DNA of 64,000 bases, from assembly GCA_902546975.1 (NCBI GenBank), contig CACCLU010000004.1:89134-153133 (forward strand), given 5' to 3'. The notes under the pieces were generated by a model that was not told the origin of the DNA, searched no databases, and saw nothing but the letters and a program-made list of their open reading frames with translations. This document shows positions 2,712 through 27,735 of this stretch, piece after piece. The stretch's first letter is position 1, and each line of letters begins with the position of its first letter. The translations under genes were made by a program, and so were the position numbers. This DNA comes from an uncultured Alphaproteobacteria bacterium (GTDB lineage: Bacteria; Pseudomonadota; Alphaproteobacteria; HIMB59).

Positions 2712-3808
2712 GATAATAAACTTTCAATTAACTCATTTGAATAATTCTTTAGCATATCATCTTTTATTGACTCAATAATCTCAACAATAAATGCTTTTTT
2801 TAATATTTTTTTAGCTATTTCGCTATCAATTCCTCTGGACTTAAAATAATAAATTTGCTCGTCATCTAATTTGGAAACAGTAGACCCGTGACTACATTTT
2901 ACATCATCTGCATAAATTTCAAGTTCTGGTTTATTGTTGGCTTTCGATATGTCATCTAAAAGCAACGATCTGCTCATTTGATATCCATCAGTTTTCTGAG
3001 CAATAGAGTCAACATATATCTTTCCTTGAAAGTTTGTAATAGCGCCCTTCTCAACAATAGATTTAAAAATTTCTCTACTTGACGAAGAAGGCTTTAAATG
3101 TTGTATAAATGAATAATTGTCATTTACACCATAATTGTTGATATTAAGACCATATAAATCAAAATTACATTCGTGATTTAATGATGCATAAAACTCGTTT
3201 CTTGTATGGATATTATCTGATTGAAAAGAAACAAAGTTTAAATAAGAGTTGTCTTGTAAATTAGTCTCAAAGTATAAAAAAGATTTATTATTTGAAACAT
3301 TATAGTGAACTACATTTAACTTAGAACTATTAGATAAATCTAAGAAAATTGATTTAGGGTACTCATCATTTGATTTGCTATTAAAAATAATAAGATTGAC
3401 TTCGTTTGTAGAGGATTTAGATATATGTATGTTCTCATTTATTTGAGAAATATCTAAAAATAAATTTCTATCATCAAATGTATCTAAATTTACAGATTTA
3501 GTTTCCCTTTTTACTAAAGAGGAGACTCTAAAAAAGCTATCTTCATTATTGTAATTCCAGAGATTTAAATTAGTTGTCAAATCAAATGGATTTGAAATAT
3601 AAGAGGTAATATTTTTGGTATTATCTAATAGTTTAGAAAAATTTATATCTCTAAGTAAGATTTCGGATTTGACTTCTTTATGGAGTTGAGCGTATTTATA
3701 ATTTTCAATTTTAAAATTTTTATATGGGTTTTGATTATCTAAGATGTCTTTAGCATATTGAGATACACTTTCAGATTGTATCTTGTCTAAATTTAATACA
3801 AGTTCCAT
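2708..3808 (-). CDS. sufD: Fe-S assembly protein SufD (divergent N-terminus)
   Basis: C-terminal KPELEIYADDVKCSHGSTV; position between sufC and sufS. Confidence 0.9.
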   Translation of the reverse strand: MELVLNLDKIQSESVSQYAKDILDNQNPYKNFKIENYKYAQLHKEVKSEILLRDINFSKLLDNTKNITSYISNPFDLTTNLNLWNYNNEDSFFRVSSLVKRETKSVNLDTFDDRNLFLDISQINENIHISKSSTNEVNLIIFNSKSNDEYPKSIFLDLSNSSKLNVVHYNVSNNKSFLYFETNLQDNSYLNFVSFQSDNIHTRNEFYASLNHECNFDLYGLNINNYGVNDNYSFIQHLKPSSSSREIFKSIVEKGAITNFQGKIYVDSIAQKTDGYQMSRSLLLDDISKANNKPELEIYADDVKCSHGSTVSKLDDEQIYYFKSRGIDSEIAKKILKKAFIVEIIESIKDDMLKNYSNELIESLLS

Positions 3809-11146: not shown

Positions 11147-12544
11147 TTAAAATAACTTTAAATATTCTTTGATTTCCCAATCAGTTGTAGTTGTATGATA
11201 TCTAGACCACTCATCATATTTATATCCAATAAAATTGTTTATCATAGCCTCAGAAAAAACTTTTTTAGTTAATTTATCAGCAGCAAAAGCGTCTACTGCC
11301 TCTAATAAATTTCTTGGCAGTGTAGTAACCTCTTTTTTTTCTTTCTCGGTCAAATCATAAAGACTTTTATTAGTTGGTTTTGGGGGCTTCATTTTTTTGT
11401 CGATACCCTCTGTAACAGCTGCGGCTAATAAAGAAAAAGTTAAATAAGGATTTTGAGTTAAATCAGACGCCCTATTTTCTATACAATATCTATTTTGCGG
11501 TAGTCTTATCATAGCTGATCTATTATTACTGCCGTATGTCATGTGTGTAGGAGCCCATGTATGACGGCCACCATCAAGGCCCTCAACAGTAGGAACAAAT
11601 CCATTATATGAGTTAACAGTTGGGCACGCTAGAGCTGTAATCGCTGCTCCATGTTTTAAAATTCCAGCGACAGCATTGTAGGCTTTATCAGAGAAATTAT
11701 TCCCATTCTTATATATGTTATTATTTTTCTTTTTAATTGATGCCACACTATGATTGATGTGAGCGCCAGCTCTCCAATCACTAATAGTTGTCTTTGGCAT
11801 AAATGATACAAAATATCCATATTTTTTTGCAACTTCCTTTAGTAATACTCTTAAAAATACAAATCTATCAGCCATCCCTAGAATATCTGTGTAACCGAAA
11901 TCTAATTCATACTGGCCATATGCACCCTCAGCAACGACGTCATGGAGATCCCATTTCAAATCATTATTTAAAATATCTATTATTTCTTTTAAAAAATGCA
12001 TTCCATCTATTGAGTACTCTGAGTCATACCCAAAAGCTTGTCTTCTCAAATTTATAGGATCTCTATCAATTGCTTTAACTGGTTTGTCGCCCTCCCACTT
12101 CATTAAGAAAAATTCAGGTTCAATACCAACAAAAAATTTCAAGTCAGATTTAGCGCTTTCCTTTATTTGTTTTTTTAACGTCATTCTCGGGCAAACATCG
12201 TAAGGTTTGTCATTCCAATATAAATCTGCAAAAACCCATGCACATGTTTTATCCCATGGACATATAACAAGACTATCCAAATCTGGCACAGGGATTTGAT
12301 CATTATCTGCTGGGGTTAATTCTGGAACAAAGGAAACAGAATGAACAGCAAATTGAGGGCCTTTACCCATACAAAGATCCTCAAAATCAGATATAGGCAT
12401 AGGCTTAGTTTTTGGACTACCCAGAAAATCAATCCAATTAGAATAAATGTATTTTACTCCTTTTTTTTCTAAATCCTTTTTTATTTTTCTAACTTTTTTT
12501 ACATCAGGTAAGGCGTCTTTAAAATTTTCAAAATATTGACCCAA
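11147..12544 (-). CDS. Glutamine synthetase-like gamma-glutamyl-amine ligase (paralog 3)
   Basis: GIEPEF, GQYELDF, FMPK, HINHS, NNRSAMIRLP, IENRASD..NPY; TTG start with GGAGGAG Shine-Dalgarno; flap reads TWAP rather than EAP. Confidence 0.85.
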   Translation of the reverse strand: MGQYFENFKDALPDVKKVRKIKKDLEKKGVKYIYSNWIDFLGSPKTKPMPISDFEDLCMGKGPQFAVHSVSFVPELTPADNDQIPVPDLDSLVICPWDKTCAWVFADLYWNDKPYDVCPRMTLKKQIKESAKSDLKFFVGIEPEFFLMKWEGDKPVKAIDRDPINLRRQAFGYDSEYSIDGMHFLKEIIDILNNDLKWDLHDVVAEGAYGQYELDFGYTDILGMADRFVFLRVLLKEVAKKYGYFVSFMPKTTISDWRAGAHINHSVASIKKKNNNIYKNGNNFSDKAYNAVAGILKHGAAITALACPTVNSYNGFVPTVEGLDGGRHTWAPTHMTYGSNNRSAMIRLPQNRYCIENRASDLTQNPYLTFSLLAAAVTEGIDKKMKPPKPTNKSLYDLTEKEKKEVTTLPRNLLEAVDAFAADKLTKKVFSEAMINNFIGYKYDEWSRYHTTTTDWEIKEYLKLF

Positions 12545-12620
12545 GTTAGTCTCCTCCTAAAATTTAAATCTTATCGAATTGAAATTATATGACCATAATA
12601 TAAAATTACTACTTCAAATT

Positions 12621-12866
12621 ATGAATATTGATTACTTTAAAAAATCATGGATTAAATTTTACAAAAGAGGCTTTATGATGGGATTCTTTGTTTTAACTTT
12701 TATACTCACTGTTGATCAGTTTTTACAGACACCACTTTTTTTTAGTAAGATTACAGATATAAAAGTATTTATGTTCATTATATCCACTATTTTTTTTGCA
12801 GCAGTGTTTTGTGGTCTTTTAGCAGTGATTTTTTTATCACTAATTATGATCGCTACTAAAAAATAA
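12621..12866 (+). CDS. Small hypothetical membrane protein (ATG start preferred over the upstream TTG at 12579)
   Basis: Fills an otherwise empty gap; two hydrophobic stretches; no recognisable family. Confidence 0.4.
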   Translation: MNIDYFKKSWIKFYKRGFMMGFFVLTFILTVDQFLQTPLFFSKITDIKVFMFIISTIFFAAVFCGLLAVIFLSLIMIATKK

Positions 12867-13607
12867 TTATAATTTAATATTTTCTAACCAATTCAGTAAT
12901 TCAAGTTCTCTGTTAAATTGATCTTCATTTTCAAAACTTTGTAATTTATTTAATAATGCTTCAAATTCATTTTCACTCATAATCTTTAAATAATTTCTTT
13001 TCCAATAACTCATTAATTTACCGATATAGTTGTATGGTAGTTCTGGATGATATTGAGTACAAAATATGTTTTGTTTTTTATGACATATAGATTGAATAGA
13101 ATGATTATTCTCAGAAATTATGTCAAAGTCCTTGGGAAGAGTTTCTAAACTATCGTAATGATGACCAGGGGCAGTAAATAAATTTTTTTTATTTTTATAA
13201 ACAAAATGATTTTTTATAATTTTTATTTTTTCAGAATATCCAAACTCTGGACTCATAGAACTTGATATTTTTCCTCCAAATGCTGTTACAACCACTTGAA
13301 GACCCCAACAACTTCCCCAAATTGGTCTTTCTAGAGTTGCTATTCTATCAAATATCTTCAACTGATTTTTATTGTGATCATTGTCATCATAAATATTACC
13401 GAGACCTCCGGTCCATAAAAAGGCATCGTAATCTTCAAAACTAAATTTATTTACATCCTCAATGTAAGGTTTATAAACCGAGATATTTGAGAGGGGATTT
13501 TGCTTTTTAATAATTTCTTCAAAAAAACTATATTGATAAGAAGAATTTGATTTAACATGTTCATTATCATGGTTTTGATCCATGCCACTGATAATTAGTA
13601 AATTCAA
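12867..13607 (-). CDS. Class I glutamine amidotransferase-like protein (putative gamma-glutamyl-amide hydrolase)
   Basis: WTGG, nucleophile GSCWGLQ, QYHPE; no synthase domain. Confidence 0.85.
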   Translation of the reverse strand: MNLLIISGMDQNHDNEHVKSNSSYQYSFFEEIIKKQNPLSNISVYKPYIEDVNKFSFEDYDAFLWTGGLGNIYDDNDHNKNQLKIFDRIATLERPIWGSCWGLQVVVTAFGGKISSSMSPEFGYSEKIKIIKNHFVYKNKKNLFTAPGHHYDSLETLPKDFDIISENNHSIQSICHKKQNIFCTQYHPELPYNYIGKLMSYWKRNYLKIMSENEFEALLNKLQSFENEDQFNRELELLNWLENIKL

Positions 13608-13616
13608 GTTTTCTGT

Positions 13617-13787
13617 TTATTTATGTCTAGAGAATTTCTTTTTTAAAATCAATTCGTTATCTTTTTTTGCAATTTTTCTTAAAATAAAAATCATAAATGC
13701 AATCCAAATAACTGCTGCTATTAGTTTATTTTCAGCTATTGATTGAATGAGATTTTGAAAAAAGAGATTTGAAGTGTTGTAATCCAT
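13617..13787 (-). CDS. Small single-TM protein (56 aa), not in the ORF track
   Basis: Hand translation MDYNTSNLFFQNLIQSIAENKLIAAVIWIAFMIFILRKIAKKDNELILKKKFSRHK; stop 10 nt before the GATase start. Confidence 0.5.
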   Translation of the reverse strand: MDYNTSNLFFQNLIQSIAENKLIAAVIWIAFMIFILRKIAKKDNELILKKKFSRHK

Positions 13788-13793
13788 TTATTA

Positions 13794-13819
13794 TAAGGCG
13801 GGGATAATTCCCCGCCTTA
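13794..13819. terminator. Perfect 11-bp hairpin after the amt operon
   Basis: TAAGGCGGGGA-taat-TCCCCGCCTTA, GC-rich in an AT-rich background. Confidence 0.7.
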
Positions 13820-13828
13820 AATTATACA

Positions 13829-14002
13829 TTATTTTGTTTTTTTTGCAGTATCAGACTCGTGTCTTGCTGTTGCCATAGTGACTAGCACGCATAGAGCAAT
13901 AACAAAAAGGGTCCAAAATATCAGTGCACCTTCACTGTTGGCATAAGTGAAATAAGCGTCCACACCTTCCCAACTATTTTCAGGTCCTGGAAATGTATTC
14001 AT
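13829..14002 (-). CDS. Small membrane protein (57 aa) co-transcribed with amt, not in the ORF track
   Basis: MNTFPGPENSWEGVDAYFTYANSEGALIFWTLFVIALCVLVTMATARHESDTAKKTK; strong SD AAGGAAGGAG; starts 21 nt after the amt stop. Confidence 0.75.
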   Translation of the reverse strand: MNTFPGPENSWEGVDAYFTYANSEGALIFWTLFVIALCVLVTMATARHESDTAKKTK

Positions 14003-14022
14003 ATTTTCTCCTTCCTTATATG

Positions 14023-15300
14023 TTACTGATATGCCTTGAGATTTAACTCAGCGCTATCAATACCTGCTTTTTGAACTGCATCTGGTACACGTAACCAATT
14101 CATCATTTTCATAATGAATGATAAACCATAACCAGGCACAAATCCTACTAAGAACATGACTATACATCCAACTAACTGTCCACCAAAACTTGTTGGAGGA
14201 ATATCACCAGATGCTGGATAGCCTGAAGCAAATAATCCCATTGCAATCACACCCCATATACCGGCAACTCCATGAACAGATATAGCTCCTACTGGATCAT
14301 CAATCTTGAAAACACTGTGTAACCAATTATTCGCAGGAATAATTATAACACCGCCAACAAAACCGAGAACAAAGGCTAATCCTGGATACCAAACATCAAG
14401 CCCAGACGCACAGGAGAAAATACCTGCAAGACCACCTGACATCATCCAGAATGGGTTACCTTTACTCATCCAGAATGCACCAATCATTCCTCCACCTAGA
14501 CCCATGAGGGTATTGAAAGCGAAAGATGATAATGTTGCTGGAGCACCGTAAATGTTTATCCATCCACCAAACTCTGCACCTGCCCAGATTAAACAACCAC
14601 CGAGGAATCCGAAGAAACCAACAATAATCATTAAAAGACCAATAAATGAGAAACGAAGATCATGACCCTCAATCTCATTCGCAGAACCGTCAGCATTGTA
14701 TTTACCAACTCTAGGTCCTAAGTTTAAGACAACTCCGAAAGCAAACCAACCTGCTACCATGTGAACAACACCAGCTGCTCCAACATCATGATATCCGAAT
14801 TGTGTTACTAACCAACCATCAGGATGCCAGCCCCATGAAGCGGCTAAGATCCATGCTACAGACCCTAAAACAACAGCCAAGAAAGTAAATGAGCTAATTC
14901 TTATTCTCTCAAGAACAGATCCTGAAAAAATAGATGCTGTAGTACAAGCAAATAATGTAAATGCTGCCCAGAAAACACCTGTGGCTTGGTCACTTAACAT
15001 TGGCCCCATAGATACATTCCATGGAGTACCATAACCGTCAAGTGCTATTGGAGTAAATCCCTCTGGAAATGCAAGATAAATATACCAACCAAATAACCAG
15101 AAGGTTGGTATCATAAACGCGAACGCTAAAAGGTTTTTTGTAGCTGAAGAGACCGCGTTTTTAAAACGAGACGATCCTACTTCATACATCAAGAAACCTA
15201 CGTGAATTGCAATCATTAACGCAGTACACCACCAATAGTAAGCTTCCATACTGACGTTCGCTTGCATCATCACGTACGATTCAAGTTCTTCAAGTGTCAT
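14023..15300 (-). CDS. amt: Amt-family ammonium/methylammonium transporter
   Basis: About 11 TM segments, twin His (GVVHMVAG, ISVHGVAG), DDPVGA, GxxER; SD AGGAGG. Confidence 0.92.
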   Translation of the reverse strand: MTLEELESYVMMQANVSMEAYYWWCTALMIAIHVGFLMYEVGSSRFKNAVSSATKNLLAFAFMIPTFWLFGWYIYLAFPEGFTPIALDGYGTPWNVSMGPMLSDQATGVFWAAFTLFACTTASIFSGSVLERIRISSFTFLAVVLGSVAWILAASWGWHPDGWLVTQFGYHDVGAAGVVHMVAGWFAFGVVLNLGPRVGKYNADGSANEIEGHDLRFSFIGLLMIIVGFFGFLGGCLIWAGAEFGGWINIYGAPATLSSFAFNTLMGLGGGMIGAFWMSKGNPFWMMSGGLAGIFSCASGLDVWYPGLAFVLGFVGGVIIIPANNWLHSVFKIDDPVGAISVHGVAGIWGVIAMGLFASGYPASGDIPPTSFGGQLVGCIVMFLVGFVPGYGLSFIMKMMNWLRVPDAVQKAGIDSAELNLKAYQ

Positions 15301-15533
15301 TATATGACCTCCTTATTAATTATTACTTTTTATTTTTATAAAAATAAAAAAGAACAGAGAAAAAATCTTTTTACAACTTTTTAGAATCTTCTTTCCTGTA
15401 CTTTTATGTATTTTACTTTTAATTGACTTAATTATAAAATCAAAAGAGATTAATTAATGTTAAAAAAAGATTGAGTTCAATTGTTTTTTTAATGGTATGC
15501 ACGATTTGCATATTTAGATAGAGGAGATATATA

Positions 15534-16841
15534 ATGGCAACTAACCTTCACCAATTTGCAAAAAAAAATGGTGTTAAATATTTTTTTGTAAGCTTTGTAG
15601 ATTTATTTGGAGTGCTCAGATCAAAGCTTGTACCTGCAACAGCTATAGATGAAATTCAATCTGAAGGTGCTGGATTTGCTGGTTTTGCAACATGGCTTGA
15701 TATGTCTCCAGCTGACTCTGATATGTTTGGTATGCCTGATGGTGATAGTGTTATCCAGCTTCCTTGGAATAAAGAAATAGCTTGGGTTGCCTCAGATTTG
15801 TTTATGGATGGTAAACCAGTAGAAACCTCACCCAGAATAGCCTTAAAAAGACAAATAGAAAAAGCAGCTAAAAAAAATCTTTATATGAAGTCAGGTGTTG
15901 AGTGTGAATTTTTTCTAGTTAATGAAGATGGGACTTCTTTATCAGATCAAAGGGATACGCAAGCAAAACCATGCTATGACTCCTCTGCATTAATGAGAAG
16001 ATATGATGTTATTACTGAAATATGTGACTCAATGATCTCACTTGGATGGAAACCTTACCAAAACGACCATGAGGATGCGAATGGTCAATTTGAAATGAAC
16101 TGGGATTTTTCAGATTGTTTAGTAACTGCAGATAGACATGCTTTTTTTAAATTCATGGTGAAATCTATTGCAGAAAAACATTCATTAAGGGCGACTTTCA
16201 TGCCCAAACCTTTCACAAATTTAACAGGCAATGGATGTCATTGTCATATTTCTATTTGGGATAAATCTGGCAAAAAAAATATGTTTTTAGATAAAAAAGA
16301 TGAATTAGGTTTATCCAAAACTGGTTACAATTTCTTAGGTGGAATAATGGAAAGTGCGGACAAAATGGCTGCTGTTTTTAATCCAACTGTAAACTCCTAT
16401 AAAAGAATTAACGGTAGTGTTACAACATCAGGTGCAACTTGGTCACCAAGTTCGATTACTTGGGCAGGTAACAACAGAACACACATGGTAAGAGTTCCTG
16501 GAGCAGGAAGATTTGAATTGAGATTAATGGATGGAGCTACAAATCCTTATTTACTTCAAGCAGGTATTTTACTTTTAGGATTGGACGGTTTAAATAATAA
16601 AAGAGACCCTGGTAAAAGATTAGATATTAATATGTACACAGAGGGTCACAAGGCTGGAAAAGTAAAGAAATTGCCATTAAATCTTCTTGATGCAATACGT
16701 GATTTTGATAAATCAAAAATCATTAGAGCAGGTTTTGGTGATGATTTAGTTAATAGCTATGTCAAACTAAAAAATCAAGATTGGGGTACTTTTAATAAAT
16801 ACCTTTCTAATTGGGAAAGAGAAACAACTCTAGATTGTTAA
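15534..16841 (+). CDS. gmaS: Gamma-glutamylmethylamide synthetase (GlnT/type III-annotated GS)
   Basis: GAGFAGFATWLDMSP, NDHEDANGQFEMNW, SGATWSP; methylamine-cluster context. Confidence 0.88.
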   Translation: MATNLHQFAKKNGVKYFFVSFVDLFGVLRSKLVPATAIDEIQSEGAGFAGFATWLDMSPADSDMFGMPDGDSVIQLPWNKEIAWVASDLFMDGKPVETSPRIALKRQIEKAAKKNLYMKSGVECEFFLVNEDGTSLSDQRDTQAKPCYDSSALMRRYDVITEICDSMISLGWKPYQNDHEDANGQFEMNWDFSDCLVTADRHAFFKFMVKSIAEKHSLRATFMPKPFTNLTGNGCHCHISIWDKSGKKNMFLDKKDELGLSKTGYNFLGGIMESADKMAAVFNPTVNSYKRINGSVTTSGATWSPSSITWAGNNRTHMVRVPGAGRFELRLMDGATNPYLLQAGILLLGLDGLNNKRDPGKRLDINMYTEGHKAGKVKKLPLNLLDAIRDFDKSKIIRAGFGDDLVNSYVKLKNQDWGTFNKYLSNWERETTLDC

Positions 16842-17936: not shown

Positions 17937-19271
17937 CTAAATTGAGTGGTAGTTATCTACACCTACTGTTAAATCTGTACCAGCCAATGGAACTTTAGCC
18001 ATTGCTGATGACTCCATTGTCAATGCAGCTAGATCTTCTGGCTCAAGTGAGTGAATGTTTGTCTTACCACATGCTCTTGCTAACATTTGGCACTCAAGAG
18101 TCATAGTGCTAAGCAAATTATAAACTCTCTCTGCTGCCTCTGTTGGGTCTAATCTACTTCTAAGAACAGGATCCTGTGTGGCCACACCAACTGGACATCT
18201 ACCAGTATGGCAGTGATAGCAGTAACCTGCCTCCACTCCCATTTCTTTTTCATAATCAGCTTCTGGAATATCTTTGTTACAGTTCAGTGCTACTAATCCA
18301 GCTGTACCGATAGCAATAGCATCTGCACCAAGAGCTAAGGCTTTAGCCATATCAGCTCCATCTCTAATACCTCCAGCAAATACCAATGATATTTCACCAG
18401 TTTTACCAACATCGTCCAAAGCTCTTCTTGCTTCTCTAATTGCCCCAATACCAGGAATACCAGTATTAGCTGCTGCGATGTGTGGGCCAGCTGCTGTTGA
18501 GCCTTCCATAGAGTCTAAAAATATAGAGTCAGGGTCACATTTTGCTGCCATTCTGACATCGTCATAAACTCTTGATGCACCTAATTTCAATTGAATTGGC
18601 ACTTGATTGTCAGTTAATTCTCTTAATTCTTGAACCTTAAGAGCTAAATCGTCCGGTCCCATCCAGTCTGGGTGTCTAGCAGGGGATCTTTGATCAATAC
18701 CAGCAGGTAATGATCTCATCTCAGCTACTTGGTCAGTAACTTTCTGGCCCATTAAGTGACCACCCATCCCAACTTTTTGACCTTGGCCAATGAAAACCTC
18801 AATAGCGTCAGCTAATTGAGCATGGTGTGGGTTGAAGCCATACCTGGATTGAATACATTGATAATACCATTTGTGAGAGTACCTTCTCTCATCAGGTATC
18901 ATACCCCCTTCTCCAGAGCAAGTTGCACTTCCAGCCATTGATGAACCTCTAGCTAAAGCAGTTTTTGCTTCATAAGAAAGAGCACCAAAACTCATACTTG
19001 TTATGTAAACAGGAATATCAAGTTTGATAGGATTTTTTGCTCTAGGGCCTATTATTGTTTCTGTTAGACACTTCTCTCTGTAACCTTCAATAACAAATCT
19101 TGTTAATGTGCCTGGTAAAAAAACTAAATCATCCCAGTGAGGAATTTTTTTCATTAACGCCATACCACGCATACGATAACGACCAAGTTGTGATTTGATA
19201 TGAATGTCGTCCATTACCTCGGGGGTAAAAATTGAGTTTTGTCCTAATAATTGTGTATTACGTTTTGCCAT
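17937..19271 (-). CDS. FMN-binding glutamate synthase-family subunit (MgsC paralog retaining Cys cluster)
   Basis: SMSFGALS, SGEGG, GQGQKVGMGGHL, SPARHPD, CYHCHTGRCPVGVATQD. Confidence 0.88.
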   Translation of the reverse strand: MAKRNTQLLGQNSIFTPEVMDDIHIKSQLGRYRMRGMALMKKIPHWDDLVFLPGTLTRFVIEGYREKCLTETIIGPRAKNPIKLDIPVYITSMSFGALSYEAKTALARGSSMAGSATCSGEGGMIPDERRYSHKWYYQCIQSRYGFNPHHAQLADAIEVFIGQGQKVGMGGHLMGQKVTDQVAEMRSLPAGIDQRSPARHPDWMGPDDLALKVQELRELTDNQVPIQLKLGASRVYDDVRMAAKCDPDSIFLDSMEGSTAAGPHIAAANTGIPGIGAIREARRALDDVGKTGEISLVFAGGIRDGADMAKALALGADAIAIGTAGLVALNCNKDIPEADYEKEMGVEAGYCYHCHTGRCPVGVATQDPVLRSRLDPTEAAERVYNLLSTMTLECQMLARACGKTNIHSLEPEDLAALTMESSAMAKVPLAGTDLTVGVDNYHSI

Positions 19272-20107
19272 TAGCCTAATATTCCTTTCTTTTCTGCTGG
19301 CTCTAGATTGTCATAATTCCAGAGCATTCTTCCTGCAACGTATTTCTTAAATTTTGAAGCTGGGACCTTGCAATCAATCTCAGCATTTTTAATTTTTTGT
19401 TCTAGCCATCTAACCTCGTGTTCATTCATTTCACCAGGTACGCAGTCTGTTCCAAGCGAATGAGGCTCCCCTCCTACAAAAATGATTCCATCATACATTG
19501 AGTCACCCATGTTTGCGTTTACATCACCACAAACGATAATTCTTCCTCTTTGCATCATAAATCCAGTGTAAGCTCCAGCATTTCCGCCAATAAGAATAGT
19601 GCCACCTTTCATATCAATTCCAGTTCTTGCACCTGCATCGCCTTTAACTATAAGGTCACCGCCTCTAAGAGCAGCTCCAAAACAAGATCCTGCATTGTTT
19701 TCAACAACAACTTTTCCTGACATCATATTTTCAGCACATGACCAACCAACTCTTCCGTTAACTCTCACTGTTGGTCCATCGATACAACCGATACCAAAAT
19801 AACCTAAGCTACCCTCAAAGATTAAGTTTAACTTATTTAGAATTCCCACACCAAGTGAATGTTTTGCACCAGGGTTTTTAATAACTATAGACCCATATCC
19901 CTTTCGAATTGCATCTCTGATTTTTTGATTCAATTCATGAGCATCAATGCCTTCACAATCAATGGAGGTTCTTTTATTAAAATCAACTTCGTGATTACCG
20001 TAGTAGGTATAATTTTCTTCTTCTGTTACTTCAAAATATAATTTTTGCGATCTACCTGATAAATTTTCATCATCAAAAGCAGTAGTTCTTTTTGTTATGC
20101 CTGCCAT
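19271..20107 (-). CDS. GXGXG-domain protein (MgsB/GltB3 paralog) with N-terminal extension
   Basis: Repeated G-x-G-x-G beta-helix motifs (GDAGARTGIDMKGG, GNAGAYTGFMMQRG). Confidence 0.85.
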   Translation of the reverse strand: MAGITKRTTAFDDENLSGRSQKLYFEVTEEENYTYYGNHEVDFNKRTSIDCEGIDAHELNQKIRDAIRKGYGSIVIKNPGAKHSLGVGILNKLNLIFEGSLGYFGIGCIDGPTVRVNGRVGWSCAENMMSGKVVVENNAGSCFGAALRGGDLIVKGDAGARTGIDMKGGTILIGGNAGAYTGFMMQRGRIIVCGDVNANMGDSMYDGIIFVGGEPHSLGTDCVPGEMNEHEVRWLEQKIKNAEIDCKVPASKFKKYVAGRMLWNYDNLEPAEKKGILG

Positions 20108-21036
20108 ACTTTTACCTCCGCTTCATAAGGGTCATATGTTTTAATTTCGTGAGGAAATATATTCCTAATTGCAACTTCCTCTGATGCACATGCTACGATG
20201 TCTTTACTTTCGTAGATTACCATTGGCTTAGCGGCCATATGGTCTTTTGCCATTCCCAACTGATCCTTTGTTGCTACAACATATGTAAAAACTCCATCGA
20301 GCTCATCCAAGCTATCATGCATAGCTTTTTCTAGTTCAATGCCGTTAGCCATCTTATCAGCTATATAGACAGCAATTATTTCTGAGTCACAATTTGAATT
20401 AAACCTGTAACCTTTTCTTTCAAGTACTCTTCGATTGCCCCAATAGTTAGTCAATTGACCATTATGAACAACTGACACATCCTCAAAAGGAAAAGCCCAA
20501 TAAGGGTGTGCGGATTTAATATCTACATCAGACTCGGTAGCCATCCTTGTATGGCCAATACCGTGGGTACCCATAAATTTATCAAGGCCATATTGATTGG
20601 ATACAGTATTTGCATCGCCTAAGTCTTTAATGAGCTCAAGACCCTTACCAATAGATAAAATTTCAGTTTTTTCGACTGTTTCTATCTCAGTAGCCAAATC
20701 TGTGAGGTCACCTTTAAAATCAAATATATATCTGAAAGCGTATGGGGTGCTGGAGCTTTCTTTTGTTACTTTAGCACCATGTTTTTTTAAAATAGAGTCG
20801 ACAGCATTTTTTCTATTTTTTAAATCAGCAGGTGAGTCGACAGTTGCATTTACCTTTTCAGCCTCGTTTTCAGATATTTTAAATCTCATTACAAAGCCTT
20901 TTTTTAAAGGTGTTCCGTACATAGCATATCCTGTTGAGTCAGGTCCCCTATGTTTAAGACCTTGTAACATAAGGCCCATTTGTTCACCGACGTTGACTGT
21001 CTTCTTTTTATTTATAACTCCAGCTATTCCACACAT
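20095..21036 (-). CDS. Class II (Ntn) glutamine amidotransferase (MgsA paralog)
   Basis: N-terminal MCGIAG, HRGPDSTG, GHTRMATES, HNGQLTN, DSE. Confidence 0.88.
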   Translation of the reverse strand: MCGIAGVINKKKTVNVGEQMGLMLQGLKHRGPDSTGYAMYGTPLKKGFVMRFKISENEAEKVNATVDSPADLKNRKNAVDSILKKHGAKVTKESSSTPYAFRYIFDFKGDLTDLATEIETVEKTEILSIGKGLELIKDLGDANTVSNQYGLDKFMGTHGIGHTRMATESDVDIKSAHPYWAFPFEDVSVVHNGQLTNYWGNRRVLERKGYRFNSNCDSEIIAVYIADKMANGIELEKAMHDSLDELDGVFTYVVATKDQLGMAKDHMAAKPMVIYESKDIVACASEEVAIRNIFPHEIKTYDPYEAEVKVWQA

Positions 21037-21055: not shown

Positions 21056-22525
21056 TTATGGTAAGCAATCTAGGTATTTATCGAGATCCCATTGAGTCGG
21101 AGTTGCTAAAAATTCTTCCCACTCATCTCTTTTATACTCCATAAACACTTTCATCATGTCACCTGGTAGAGCATCTTGTATTACCTTATCGGTTTCTAAT
21201 CGATCTAATGCCTCACCAAGAGTCATTGGTAATTTTTCAACTTGCTTACCAGCTTTCATTTGTTCATACATATTTTGTTGTTCAGGTTTGCCTGGATCCA
21301 TTTTCTTTGAAATACCATGGTCGAATGCTTTCAACAGGCCGCTTCCCATTAAGTATGGGTTGTGGGCTGAGTCAACTGATCGATATTCAAATCTACCAGG
21401 GGCAGATACCCTTAAACCACAGGTTCTGTTTTGATATCCCCAGTCCGCATAAACTGGAGCCCAAAAACCTGTATCCCAAAGTCTTCTATATGAATTCACA
21501 GTTGAGGAACCCAAGGCTGTTAAAGCAGGAAGGTGTTCCATGACACCACCAATTGCTTGAAGGCCTATTTTTCCAGGAATTCTTCTATCTTTTCCGTCCG
21601 GCATAAAGACATTTGTACCTCCCCTACGGTGATGAAATACATTTTCCATACCTGGGATAGTCTTGTTACCACATGGTATTAACTCATCTTTTCCGCCCTT
21701 CCAGAGTGAAATATTTGTGTGACACCCAGAAGCAGACACGCCAACAAATGGCTTACTCAGAAAACAAGCAATCAAATTAAATTCTCTTGCTACTTGAGCA
21801 CAGATTTGTCTGTAAGTTGATAACCTGTCAGCGTTTCTAACAACATCATCGTAGTTGAAATTTAGTTCTAATTGTCCAGGCGCGTCCTCATGGTCACCTT
21901 GGATAATGTCCAAACCCATTGCACGTGAATACTCAATTACTTTCATGTAAACAGGTCTTAATGATTCAAATTGATCAATGTGATAGCAGTAAGGCTTAGA
22001 GAAACCTGAGCCAGTCGGTGAACCATCTTCGTTTTTTGTTAACCACATCATTTCAGGTTCTGTCCCTGCTCGTAATTCTAGTTTGTGTTTCTTTTTAAAT
22101 TCTTCATGGGCTCTTTTTAAGTTACCTCTGCAATCAGATGTAAGATATCCACCAGGATCTTTTTCTTCTTCCCTGTTTCTAAAACAAGTACAAAAAACTC
22201 TGGCAATTCTTTTATCCCATGGAATTTGAACAAATGTTTCAGGGTCAGGTATACCCACTAATTCGTGAGCCTCTGGTCCATAACCTATGTAATCACCATG
22301 TCTATTTGTAAATAGATTAGCAGTAGCTCCATAAACTAATTGGAAACCTTTATTGGCTACACTCTCCCAATGATCTGCAGGAACACCTTTACCTACAATT
22401 CGACCTGTAACAGAAATAAATTGATAATAAATGTACTCAATTCCTAATTTATCAATTTTTTTTCTAACTTGTTTTATATAGTCTTGTCTCTTTTTATCCT
22501 TAACGTACGTTTCTAGCGCTGTCAT
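21056..22525 (-). CDS. Glutamine synthetase-like gamma-glutamyl-amine ligase (paralog 2, GMAS-like)
   Basis: GTEPEM, GDHEDAPGQLE, SASGCH, FWAP, NRTCGLR, FEYRSVD..NPY. Confidence 0.85.
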   Translation of the reverse strand: MTALETYVKDKKRQDYIKQVRKKIDKLGIEYIYYQFISVTGRIVGKGVPADHWESVANKGFQLVYGATANLFTNRHGDYIGYGPEAHELVGIPDPETFVQIPWDKRIARVFCTCFRNREEEKDPGGYLTSDCRGNLKRAHEEFKKKHKLELRAGTEPEMMWLTKNEDGSPTGSGFSKPYCYHIDQFESLRPVYMKVIEYSRAMGLDIIQGDHEDAPGQLELNFNYDDVVRNADRLSTYRQICAQVAREFNLIACFLSKPFVGVSASGCHTNISLWKGGKDELIPCGNKTIPGMENVFHHRRGGTNVFMPDGKDRRIPGKIGLQAIGGVMEHLPALTALGSSTVNSYRRLWDTGFWAPVYADWGYQNRTCGLRVSAPGRFEYRSVDSAHNPYLMGSGLLKAFDHGISKKMDPGKPEQQNMYEQMKAGKQVEKLPMTLGEALDRLETDKVIQDALPGDMMKVFMEYKRDEWEEFLATPTQWDLDKYLDCLP

Positions 22526-24851: not shown

Positions 24852-26171
24852 TTAAATCTTACCAGGCACCCAACCGGTTCCCGCTAAAGGAACCCTTGCC
24901 ATTGCAGCAGCTTCAACTGTTAATGCACATAGGTCCTCAGGTTCAAGATTATGTAAATCGTTTTTACCACATGCCCTCGCTATAGTTTGGGCTTCAAGAG
25001 TCATAACCTTGAGATAATTAGATAATCTTTTTCCACCTTTTACTGGATCTAATCTTTTCATTAATTTTGGATCTTGTGTATTTATACCTGATGGGTCTTT
25101 ACCTTCATGCCAATCATCGAAAGCACCAGCTGTTGTTCCAAGTTTTTTGTAATCGCTCTCCCACTTTGGATCATTATCACCCAGTGCAATTAATGCTGAT
25201 GAACCAATGGAAACAGCATCAGCACCCAATGCCATAGCTTTTGCAACATCCGCACCATTTCTAATTCCACCTGAAATAATTAACTGAACCTTCCTGTGCA
25301 TATCTAAGTCTAATAAAGCATCTACTGCTGGCCTGATACATGCCAATGTTGGCTGACCTACGTTTTCGATAAATACCTCTTGTGTAGCTGCAGTACCTCC
25401 TTGCATGCCATCAAGCACCACCACATCAGCACCGGCTTTTACTGCAAGTGCAGTATCGTAGTAAGGCCTAGATCCTGCAATTTTTACAAATATGGGAACT
25501 TTCCAACCTGTTATTTCCCTGAGTTCTAAAATTTTAATTTCCAAATCATCTGGTCCAGTCCAATCTGGATGTCTACATGCTGATCTCTGATCAATTCCTT
25601 TTGGTAATGTTCTCATCTCGGCAACACGATCACTTATCTTTTGACCGAGTAACATACCTCCACCGCCAGGTTTAGCACCTTGACCTATCACAACTTCAAT
25701 AGCATCTGCTTTTCTTAAATCCTCTGGATTCATTCCATACCTTGAGGGAAGTAATTGGTAAACCAAATGCTTTGATTGTCCTCTCTCCTCAGGGGTCATG
25801 CCTCCATCGCCTGTTGTCGTTGAAGTCCCGGCAATACTAGCTCCTCTTCCAAGCGCTTCTTTCGCTGGTCCTGAGAGAGCTCCAAAGCTCATTCCAGCAA
25901 TTGTTATTGGAATATCTAATTCAAGCGGTTTTTTTGCAAATCTTGTTCCAAGAGTGACGTTAGTACTACACTTTTCTCTATAGCCCTCTAAAGGGTATCT
26001 TGACATTGATGCGCCTAAAAAAAGAAGATCGTCAAAATGAGGTAGTCTTTTTTTTGAACCACCGCCTCTAATGTCATAAATACCTGTTTCTGCAGCTCTT
26101 CGAATTTCAGAGTTTGTATAGTCATCAAATGTCCAAGATTTTCTTGGTGTAGTTTTAAATTTTTCTGCCAT
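24852..26171 (-). CDS. mgsC: N-methylglutamate synthase FMN subunit
   Basis: AGMSFGALS, TGDGG, GQGAKPGGGGMLLG, SACRHPDWTGPDDL; Cys-less FDDWHEGKDP. Confidence 0.85.
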   Translation of the reverse strand: MAEKFKTTPRKSWTFDDYTNSEIRRAAETGIYDIRGGGSKKRLPHFDDLLFLGASMSRYPLEGYREKCSTNVTLGTRFAKKPLELDIPITIAGMSFGALSGPAKEALGRGASIAGTSTTTGDGGMTPEERGQSKHLVYQLLPSRYGMNPEDLRKADAIEVVIGQGAKPGGGGMLLGQKISDRVAEMRTLPKGIDQRSACRHPDWTGPDDLEIKILELREITGWKVPIFVKIAGSRPYYDTALAVKAGADVVVLDGMQGGTAATQEVFIENVGQPTLACIRPAVDALLDLDMHRKVQLIISGGIRNGADVAKAMALGADAVSIGSSALIALGDNDPKWESDYKKLGTTAGAFDDWHEGKDPSGINTQDPKLMKRLDPVKGGKRLSNYLKVMTLEAQTIARACGKNDLHNLEPEDLCALTVEAAAMARVPLAGTGWVPGKI

Positions 26172-26854
26172 TAGTACTCCGATACATTATCTATATTAAA
26201 ATTATAAAGTTTTCTTGCTGAACCATACATTTTGAAGTTTTTAATCTCACTTTCATTTATACTTGCTTTTTTTAAAAGAGATCTCAAAATATTTTGATCT
26301 TTTTTATTCATTTTTTTCTCTTCGCAGTCAGCACCGAGTGATTTCACCTTACCCTTAATAAAAATATTTGCTTCATAGATACTGTCTCCCAGAGCGTCTC
26401 CAGCATCTCCACATATAACTAAATTTCCAGATTGAGCCATAAATGCAGACATATGGCCTACCGATCCTTTAACTATAATATCTATTCCTTTCATTGAAAT
26501 CCCACAACGTGAACTAGTATCACCATCAATGATCAAAGTTCCACCATGTGCTGTAGCACCGGCTGATTGGGATGCATTGCCCTTAACATGAACAGTTCCA
26601 GACATCATATTTTCTGCAACACCTGTGCCCACATTTCCATTTACAATGATATTTGCATTCATGTTCATACCAGCACAATAGTATCCTGTGTGACCATCAA
26701 TAGTGACTTCAATCTCGTCTTTTAGTCCAGCACAAATAGCGTGATTTCCATCTGGATTTGAAATTTTAAAAATCTTTTTGTTTGATTTTCTATCTATACT
26801 CTGAAGAGTTTCATTAACTTTTCTCAATGACTCTTTTTTTAAATTTAAATTCAT
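26171..26854 (-). CDS. mgsB: N-methylglutamate synthase GXGXG subunit
   Basis: GHTGYYCAGM, GNASQSAGATAHGG, RCGISMKG. Confidence 0.85.
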   Translation of the reverse strand: MNLNLKKESLRKVNETLQSIDRKSNKKIFKISNPDGNHAICAGLKDEIEVTIDGHTGYYCAGMNMNANIIVNGNVGTGVAENMMSGTVHVKGNASQSAGATAHGGTLIIDGDTSSRCGISMKGIDIIVKGSVGHMSAFMAQSGNLVICGDAGDALGDSIYEANIFIKGKVKSLGADCEEKKMNKKDQNILRSLLKKASINESEIKNFKMYGSARKLYNFNIDNVSEY

Positions 26855-27735
26855 TATTTGCCCCAGCTGTATACTTTTCCGGGCTCTGGTTCAAAAATTT
26901 TTGCTGAATTTACATTTGGTAAGTGTGCCATTGCTTGAAACTCTGAGGCAATAGCAACATAATCCTTTGTTTCTGCAACAACTGCGGGTTTACAAGCTAT
27001 CTCATCTCTAACAATTGCCATGCCATTTTTGGTTCCAGAAATAAATGTGTAAAAACCATCGAGGTCCTTCAGTCCATCCAAAAGTGTTTCTTTGAGTGAT
27101 TTTTTATCAGATAATCCGTTTGAAATATAACCTGCAGCGACTTCCGTATCATTCAAGGACTTTATTTCAATCCCTTTTTTCTGAAGCGATCTTCTTAAAT
27201 TGTTGTGATTTGACAAAGATCCGTTATGTACAAGACATTCATCCTCGCCTGTGGAATATGGATGAGAGCCATCTGTCGTGATTGCACTTTCTGTTGCCAT
27301 CCTTGTATGCCCAATAGCATGTGAGCCAGAAAACTTCTCTAGTGAAAAATTTTTAACAACATCCTTCGGATTTCCTACTTGTTTAAATATTTCTATGCAA
27401 CTACCATACCCAACTAAACTTAATTCATCATGATTTTTTAAAATTTCTATAAATTTCTTTGGCTTCATTGCTGTTTCAATTATTAAATGATCTGAAATAG
27501 ATTTTACTTTGATATCTTTTACTTGCTTAGATAGTTTTTTTGAAATTTCTTTTACTTGATCAGTATTAGAGCAGACCGAATATTTATATTTCTTTTTTTT
27601 CTCAGATGAGTATATCGCAAAACCTGCACTATCAGGACCACGCGTAGCCATACTATTCATCATTCCAGTAAGAAATTTACCTAATTGTGAATTATATTTT
27701 TTATTTTTTAAATATATTCCAACTATACCGCACAT
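26854..27735 (-). CDS. mgsA: N-methylglutamate synthase Ntn-amidotransferase subunit
   Basis: MCGIVG, RGPDSAG, GHTRMATES, HNGSLSNH. Confidence 0.85.
   Translation of the reverse strand: MCGIVGIYLKNKKYNSQLGKFLTGMMNSMATRGPDSAGFAIYSSEKKKKYKYSVCSNTDQVKEISKKLSKQVKDIKVKSISDHLIIETAMKPKKFIEILKNHDELSLVGYGSCIEIFKQVGNPKDVVKNFSLEKFSGSHAIGHTRMATESAITTDGSHPYSTGEDECLVHNGSLSNHNNLRRSLQKKGIEIKSLNDTEVAAGYISNGLSDKKSLKETLLDGLKDLDGFYTFISGTKNGMAIVRDEIACKPAVVAETKDYVAIASEFQAMAHLPNVNSAKIFEPEPGKVYSWGK

Follow-up and report, generated by a model that had tools for sequence, protein, structure and literature searches.

A membrane microprotein strictly linked to one clade of GlnK-independent Amt channels is a candidate accessory subunit

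GlnK is the usual partner of the canonical ammonium channel AmtB. In the locus described here, the place behind a divergent amt gene is taken by an open reading frame of 57 codons, which raises the question of whether its product is a partner of the channel, and of what kind. The window, i.e. the whole stretch of 64,000 nt that was analysed, comes from an uncultured alphaproteobacterium of the HIMB59 lineage. The small gene occupies positions 13829–14002 of the minus strand and encodes MNTFPGPENSWEGVDAYFTYANSEGALIFWTLFVIALCVLVTMATARHESDTAKKTK, a single-pass membrane microprotein as judged by the reading frame, family motifs, dN/dS, charge bias and a predicted helix. The stop codon of amt (TAA) lies at 14023–14025, and the ATG of the microprotein follows 20 nt further on, after a spacer (14003–14022, minus strand, CATATAAGGAAGGAGAAAAT) that carries a ribosome-binding site, AAGGAAGGAG, at 14008–14017, 5 nt ahead of the ATG; the strong Shine–Dalgarno sequence of the initial annotation is thereby confirmed. 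A promoter scan of the spacer returned no promoter-like site. From its sequence context, the microprotein is translated from its own ribosome-binding site behind amt. The product has one hydrophobic stretch (residues 26–44, mean Kyte–Doolittle 2.6), in line with the single transmembrane helix that had been claimed, preceded by an N-terminal motif at residues 10–21 (SWEGVDAYFTYA) and followed by RHE at residues 47–49.

The other side of the gene is marked by a GC-rich hairpin with an 11-bp stem (13794–13819, minus strand; −21.8 kcal/mol, z −4.3 against shuffles), which begins 9 nt past the microprotein stop codon, so that the small gene does lie between amt and the hairpin as described initially. 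The hairpin has no U-tract, and a simple terminator scan did not call it an intrinsic terminator. Across the genus the stem is kept, with a changed loop in a diverged group of congeners; the hairpin may partly terminate transcription or, as a 3′ structure, stabilise the transcript. Rfam returned no element around the hairpin or in the amt leader (15301–15533).

The nearby hairpin, the small size of the reading frame and the lack of a family match could all be taken to mean that the conservation comes from an RNA element or from the 3′ untranslated region of amt. The substitution pattern is not that of non-coding DNA. Against the congener copy dN/dS is 0.13 (dN 0.09, dS 0.71), and over all comparisons it ranges from 0.09 to 0.34, with synonymous change saturated between distant copies. 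Both the length of 54–60 codons and the amino-acid motifs are retained in AT-rich marine genomes, in the GC-rich genomes of Rhodocyclaceae and in Bacilli, and no Rfam match was found. Conservation at the level of codons thus effectively refutes a non-coding origin, which we regard as very improbable, and the substitution pattern is that of a genuine gene kept by purifying selection. The exact microprotein of the window is present on at least 999 contigs. In one congener assembly (G018, contig C9, 14221–14392) the small gene is called in two overlapping pieces, residues 1–35 and 29–57, which may reflect a frameshift or an assembly error.

In 28 close homologs, M1, N2, P5, G6, S10, W11, E12, G13, V14, D15, Y17, F18, T19 and A21 are invariant, as are A46, H48, E49 and S50 behind the helix, while the helix itself varies among hydrophobic residues. 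The N-terminal and ARHES motifs pointed out in the initial annotation are therefore the conserved core of a family. A homolog search gathered 98 clusters with 54–98% identity to the microprotein, nearly all of exactly 57 aa, and 39 matches came from 1.84 billion representative proteins searched with a profile, the distant members being 54–60 aa long. The family signature is an acidic N-terminus of the form M-N/G-x-SPI-x-SWEG-A/V-x-AYFTFA, one variable helix and then [RK]HE. The microprotein of the window matches both the pattern used for the N-terminal motif, S/T-W-E-G-x2-A-Y-F-T-x-A (in short SWEG-x2-AYFT-x-A), and the helix followed by His-Glu. Within the N-terminal motif, W, F and A are at least 90% conserved in 28 diverse members, and W, E, G, A, Y, F, T and A in a set of 46; the His-Glu after the helix is invariant in two family alignments.

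A scan of named genomes confirmed 189 microprotein loci, 80 of which were kept, from Alphaproteobacteria (Methylopila, Methyloceanibacter, Mesorhizobium, Thalassospira, Dongia and Pelagibius), Betaproteobacteria (Rhodocyclaceae), Gammaproteobacteria (Neptunomonas, Marinomonas, Amphritea, Oceanobacter, Kistimonas, Thiomicrorhabdus and Halochromatium) and Bacilli (Paenibacillus, Aquibacillus, Gracilibacillus, Alkalihalobacillus and Alteribacillus). At five Bacilli loci (L088, L090, L097, L100 and L105) the microprotein is 84–101 aa long, with an added C-terminal tail of about 30–40 residues that is acidic, of low complexity and on the cytoplasmic side. One cluster member, P0299, turned out to be an unrelated protein that had been misplaced.

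The gene had been described as unannotated. For its relatives this does not hold, since they are called in RefSeq and UniProt, although under the name 'hypothetical protein' where they are named at all. Searches of Pfam, NCBIfam and the PDB with the microprotein, its distant members and the small proteins of a sister clade described below gave sub-threshold noise only, and matches to Intron_maturas2, Fumarate_red_C, DUF6867, NdhQ and CcmD were rejected as identities because they fell below threshold. CcmD (heme exporter protein D) is likewise a small single-pass inner-membrane protein, but the profile reached its PDB chain 7f02_D with an E-value of 2.1 and the gene has no ccm context. Nor did Pfam or NCBIfam, at E ≤ 0.1 above cut-off, place the microprotein with a named small transporter subunit such as KdpF or AcrZ.

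The homologs were linked to amt in every sample. At all 80 kept loci of named genomes, the next gene upstream, in the same orientation and separated by 10–147 nt, encodes an Amt 53–65% identical to that of the window; the initial annotation was right that comparable small ORFs adjoin amt genes of this kind. In the window itself the gene follows a divergent-clade amt immediately and in the same orientation, with 20 nt between the two. Marine metagenome contigs gave the same picture, with amt, 14–15 nt and then the 57-aa gene at 12/12 sites, whereas the gene after the microprotein differs from that in the window. On these contigs amt is an intact frame of 427 aa in nine cases, is split into two calls in L013 and L016, and was assigned by position in L024.

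Presence and absence follow the same rule. The sample of relatives comprised 61 genomes (60 searched plus the window's own), and those carrying an Amt of the clade have the microprotein adjacent to it in 30/30 cases. It was found in none of the 27 relatives without an Amt match at E ≤ 1e-80, and three relatives with only a 47%-identical Amt gave no match to the microprotein profile. A single partial copy (in G024) occurs where no amt was detectable, perhaps due to the end of the contig. In an evenly drawn sample of 394 complete genomes across the phylum, six Amts are at least 54% identical to that of the window, and five of them have an adjacent profile match; behind the sixth (L109), a diverged 57-aa ORF begins 15 nt after amt, so that a small ORF is present in 6/6. 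This diverged member (2937–3110, plus strand, genome G314) keeps TWDGVEGAVFMGA and the helix, has QMAEAAKY where [RK]HE is otherwise invariant, and is partnered by a long-branch Amt of the same clade.

In the Amt tree, the microprotein-linked channels form one clade (support 96) and the glnK-linked channels lie outside it (100). Taxonomic classes are intermixed within the linked clade, suggesting that amt and the microprotein gene have been transferred as a unit. In Amphritea, Oceanobacter and Alkalihalobacillus both kinds of pair exist side by side, each amt with its own type of partner. No natural fusion of Amt and microprotein was found; the one candidate, P0134 (482 aa), is an internal assembly duplication. 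This universal same-strand adjacency and the near-perfect match of presence and absence give strong comparative support to the earlier proposal of an accessory or regulatory subunit.

The partner channel itself is unusual. The amt gene (14023–15300, minus strand) encodes a 425-aa channel of a divergent clade without glnK linkage, as shown by PF00909 (210 bits), the tree and sequence motifs. By this Pfam match, by its pore residues and by its fold it belongs to the Amt/Mep/Rh family, yet its scores stay under the cut-offs of the NCBIfam models amt, AmtB and marine_trans_1, with 54.9 bits for the canonical AmtB model NF007947 (cut-off 657) and 212.5 for TIGR00836 (cut-off 343.3). We rejected an assignment as canonical AmtB on these scores, on a GFLGGC motif in place of GFNxGS and on the absence of an adjacent glnK. 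A signal peptide is lacking throughout the clade, whereas the canonical AmtB encoded elsewhere in the genome has one and no small ORF behind its gene. The twin-His pair, the Phe-gate, the Trp (SWGW) and the Asp of the pore are all kept, with SWGW, HD, VVH, GFFGF and VHG aligned. The outer binding motif is changed: canonical channels have GWFGFNGGS, the linked clade GFFGFLGGC and the sister clade GFWGFYAAC in every member. In the product of the window's amt (14023–15300, minus strand) the altered motif lies at residues ~229–236. Numbered as in E. coli AmtB, with the positions assigned by motif, Ser219 has presumably become Cys and Asn216 Leu or Tyr, and the Ser-to-Cys exchange is found in 100% of both clades. 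Such an alteration of the outer site in both clades suggests a changed substrate preference. Conserved aromatic insertions also mark two loops of the linked clade (around W94 and W247), which we take to be periplasmic from the helix order of the model and the known topology of Amt proteins.

The soluble GlnK (PF00543, ~112 aa) acts as a trimer that closes off the cytoplasmic exits of AmtB. GlnK and the microprotein are alike in being small proteins that are encoded beside amt and co-inherited with it. They differ in that the microprotein is a 57-aa membrane helix without a PII match: an identity as PII/GlnK (PF00543) was rejected, since neither Pfam nor NCBIfam gave such a match and a single membrane helix is not the soluble PII fold with its T-loop. 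No PII gene is present in the window, as stated initially; the genome nevertheless has two, one in a canonical glnK–amtB pair on another contig and a second about 8 kb left of the window. The phrase 'in place of glnK' is therefore accurate for gene position only. Since the normal glnK–amtB pair is retained, the microprotein fills the partner slot of another Amt clade and does not substitute for a missing PII system; both partner types are present within one genome, each tied to an Amt clade of its own. HIMB59-type cells are described as keeping glnB–glnA and glnK–amtB, unlike Pelagibacter (PMC3870248), and the genome examined here agrees. One close homolog of the Amt bears the label 'MarineAlpha5'.

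The microprotein could still be a functional stand-in for GlnK, that is, a membrane-embedded gate or inhibitor acting on a signal and not a constitutive subunit. The linked Amt clade is never found beside glnK while the canonical amtB of the same genomes is, and sensing of pH or a ligand is conceivable for the invariant His-Glu, which sits where the helix meets the cytoplasm. In Pelagibacter, the outlier amt SAR11_1310, whose orthology to the window amt is not presumed, lies among glnT, gltB and glx by locus numbering. Other features fit such a gate poorly. The cytoplasmic tail has about 10–13 residues in most members and no known ligand-binding fold or likeness to a T-loop, and the best-conserved segment is predicted to be periplasmic. 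Moreover, a shared transcript and tight spacing, as read from the gene order, would suit a stoichiometric subunit more than a conditional regulator. We thus consider a conditional gate unlikely.

The genes around the pair bear on a different alternative, in which the co-transcribed membrane protein has a job of its own in amine catabolism, such as relief of aldehyde or ammonia stress or the anchoring of an enzyme, and does not bind Amt. In the window, the pair lies in an island of the methylamine/N-methylglutamate type (10130–31336). Divergent from amt is a gmaS-like GS-III gene (15534–16841, plus strand; TIGR03105, 643 bits), and the region between the two (15301–15533) probably holds both promoters, although it shows weak promoter-like hexamers only. 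Two further GS-like ligases are encoded on the minus strand at 11147–12544 and 21056–22525, together with two complete GATase_6/GXGXG/Glu_synthase triplets (17937–21036 and 24852–27735), a DAO oxidoreductase, an IclR regulator and a SoxA-like protein. Three GS-like ligases and two triplets suggest parallel modules of the gamma-glutamylation/N-methylglutamate type for more than one amine.

Two more small reading frames occur in this part of the window. One of 56 aa with a single hydrophobic helix (MDYNTSNLFFQNLIQSIAENKLIAAVIWIAFMIFILRKIAKKDNELILKKKFSRHK; 13617–13787, minus strand) starts right past the hairpin and ends 9 nt before a class-I GATase gene (12867–13607, minus strand); congeners keep it with substitutions of the coding type, and Pfam and NCBIfam gave no match. 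The other (12579–12866, plus strand, 95 aa) has two hydrophobic stretches, lies between the GS-like and GATase genes on the opposite strand, and has no family match.

Beyond the window the company of the pair varies widely. A demethylase of the TMAO type (DUF1989 + GCV_T, Tdm) lies beside it in Neptunomonas, Thalassospira and Hydrogenovibrio, an FMO-type monooxygenase (TMA monooxygenase, Tmm) with HODM in Marinomonas, a copper amine oxidase in Paenibacillus and a gmaS-like GS-III in Methyloceanibacter, while the ethanolamine ammonia-lyase genes EutBC follow directly downstream in Halochromatium, Kistimonas and Bacterioplanoides. The common theme is the catabolism of small amines that are either substrates of the Amt type (methylammonium) or release ammonia. 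The label 'methylamine-type' given to the channel at first thus fits the island in the window and is too narrow for the clade, whose pairs also accompany Tdm, Tmm, EutBC and copper amine oxidase. The one constant neighbour of the microprotein is Amt, the catabolic genes changing between lineages and sometimes being absent.

Adjacency and co-occurrence, however strict, speak of shared function and not of contact, and they would also fit a small protein of the same pathway that does not touch the channel. In addition, the structural model described below offers no usable interface. The neighbours, on the other hand, change completely from gmaS to Tdm, Tmm/HODM, EutBC, copper amine oxidase or none while Amt alone stays, and a corresponding small ORF accompanies a sister clade of Amts. 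These two observations point to the channel itself as the partner, and an independent job of the microprotein in amine catabolism appears slightly less likely than a conditional gate.

The sister clade is represented in the phylum sample by five Amts that are 45–46% identical to that of the window and stand beside the linked clade with a tree support of 100. All five are followed by a downstream single-pass ORF of 68–77 aa, with MSTIGYDSWAVDLAEVGAVYPFQG, a helix and IQFVREG…, according to the pattern M-S-T-x4-SW-x9-YPFQG, a helix with W-x2-WH and a charged tail. At these loci (L110–L114, e.g. L110, 2430–2645, plus strand) the small ORF comes after Amt and mgsA-like genes adjoin. The family of the sister ORF is very abundant and comprises 1362 clusters, mostly from Rhodobacteraceae and all uncharacterised. 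Some of its UniRef entries are labelled 'Heme exporter protein D', with no ccm genes nearby, and the CcmD label looks like an annotation error. The sister ORFs resemble the microprotein in position, strand, single-pass character and an N-terminal Ser-Trp followed by an aromatic motif, and their Amts share the Ser-to-Cys change in the outer binding site; they differ in having a longer cytoplasmic tail and no [RK]HE. Aligning the two families by hhalign gave a probability of 16% and an E-value of 0.0016 over the N-terminal 24 columns only, which is suggestive at most of homology between them.

The distribution of charges gives the likely orientation of the microprotein. More K+R residues are found on the C-terminal flank in 68/71 members, and the N-terminal flank has on average 0.2 K+R and 2.9 D+E over the 71. 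According to the positive-inside rule, this excess indicates N-out/C-in, with residues 1–25 (acidic and aromatic) predicted outside, the transmembrane helix at 26–44, and residues 45–57 (ARHES and a lysine-rich tail) predicted to be cytoplasmic.

We further modelled the pair as an in-frame amt–spacer–microprotein read-through of a Rhodocyclaceae locus, with a spacer of 49 residues and stop codons read as Gly, folded from a 93-row alignment and judged by pLDDT and beta-bridges. The Amt part reached a pLDDT above 90, the microprotein helix 95–97 and the N-terminal motif 58–86. Folded alone, the microprotein gave 93–98 for the helix, and the motif appeared as a short helix; as the confidence of the helix is equal alone and in the fusion, it is uninformative on docking. 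In the fusion, residue A13 of the motif takes part in a beta-bridge, and its counterpart must be a residue of Amt because all other bridge residues lie in Amt. At most, the model hints at contact, which might involve the periplasmic loops. A fold search with it retrieved Amt structures only (TM-score 0.83–0.86 relative to the target). The nearest solved structures are those of sensor-type Amts (6EU6 and 8QJ3; sequence E-value 7e-36, ~26% identity).

Taken together, these comparisons suggest that the microprotein is probably a dedicated accessory subunit of one GlnK-independent Amt clade that travels with genes for the catabolism of small amines. As a subunit, its helix would pack against Amt, the periplasmic SWEG-x2-AYFTFA segment would contact the clade-specific periplasmic loops near the mouth of the channel, and [RK]HE would anchor at the cytoplasmic face of the membrane. 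The microprotein might be needed for assembly or stability of the channel, or it might tune gating or the preference for NH4+ versus methyl- or alkyl-ammonium, much as KdpF, AcrZ and MgtS act on their transporters. The channel, in turn, could serve to import small amines; alternatively, it could let out or recapture ammonia from amine catabolism when nitrogen is plentiful, a state in which GlnK would shut canonical AmtB. It is also conceivable, though we think it rather improbable, that the two proteins form a two-component amine channel, in which the microprotein segment over the loops and the altered outer site together reshape the mouth and shift selectivity or gating. Such a channel would be moved from NH4+ towards methyl- or alkyl-ammonium, or towards a release of ammonia independent of GlnK.

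Small single-pass subunits of transporters are known from other systems, namely KdpF of KdpFABC, AcrZ with AcrB, MgtS with MgtA, and CydX, which are thought to bind, stabilise or tune their membrane partners. Like the microprotein, these proteins have fewer than 60 residues and a single membrane pass and are encoded in an operon with a large transporter. They have no sequence similarity to it, and the partner here is an Amt/Mep/Rh channel; moreover, in the microprotein it is the parts outside the membrane, and not the helix, that are most conserved. Among Amt proteins, Ks-Amt5 and Sd-Amt1, the nearest solved relatives of the partner channel, presumably carry fused cytoplasmic signalling domains. 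The titles of their PDB entries (6EU6; 8QJ3, 8QJ4 and 8QPF) name them sensor or receptor, the Sd-Amt1 chains being 644–661 aa long; at ~26% identity only, the Amt of the window is unlike these sensor types in consisting of the channel alone, its small partner being a separate protein. Few membrane proteins have been studied as thoroughly as the Amt/Mep/Rh channels, and to our knowledge only soluble PII proteins are known as partners of bacterial Amts. Searches of the literature and of family libraries turned up no small membrane subunit of the kind represented by KdpF, AcrZ, MgtS and CydX for any bacterial Amt.

If the two-component reading is true, no earlier subunit embedded in the membrane would have been described for a bacterial Amt/Mep/Rh channel, and the microprotein would have a counterpart in the sister clade, which is abundant in marine Rhodobacteraceae. 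The Amt family would gain a new part from a membrane subunit co-inherited so strictly with a whole clade, and likewise from the sister-clade ORF. Both clades occur in methylated-amine, ethanolamine and primary-amine islands of abundant ocean bacteria, the carriers being HIMB59/SAR11-like cells, Rhodobacteraceae and Oceanospirillales (Amphritea, Neptunomonas and Oceanobacter). Ammonia efflux was proposed by Smith et al. for the Pelagibacter 'outlier Amt' SAR11_1310 (PMC3870248), and how these cells take up methylamines or release ammonium is the question on which a dedicated subunit of the channel would bear.
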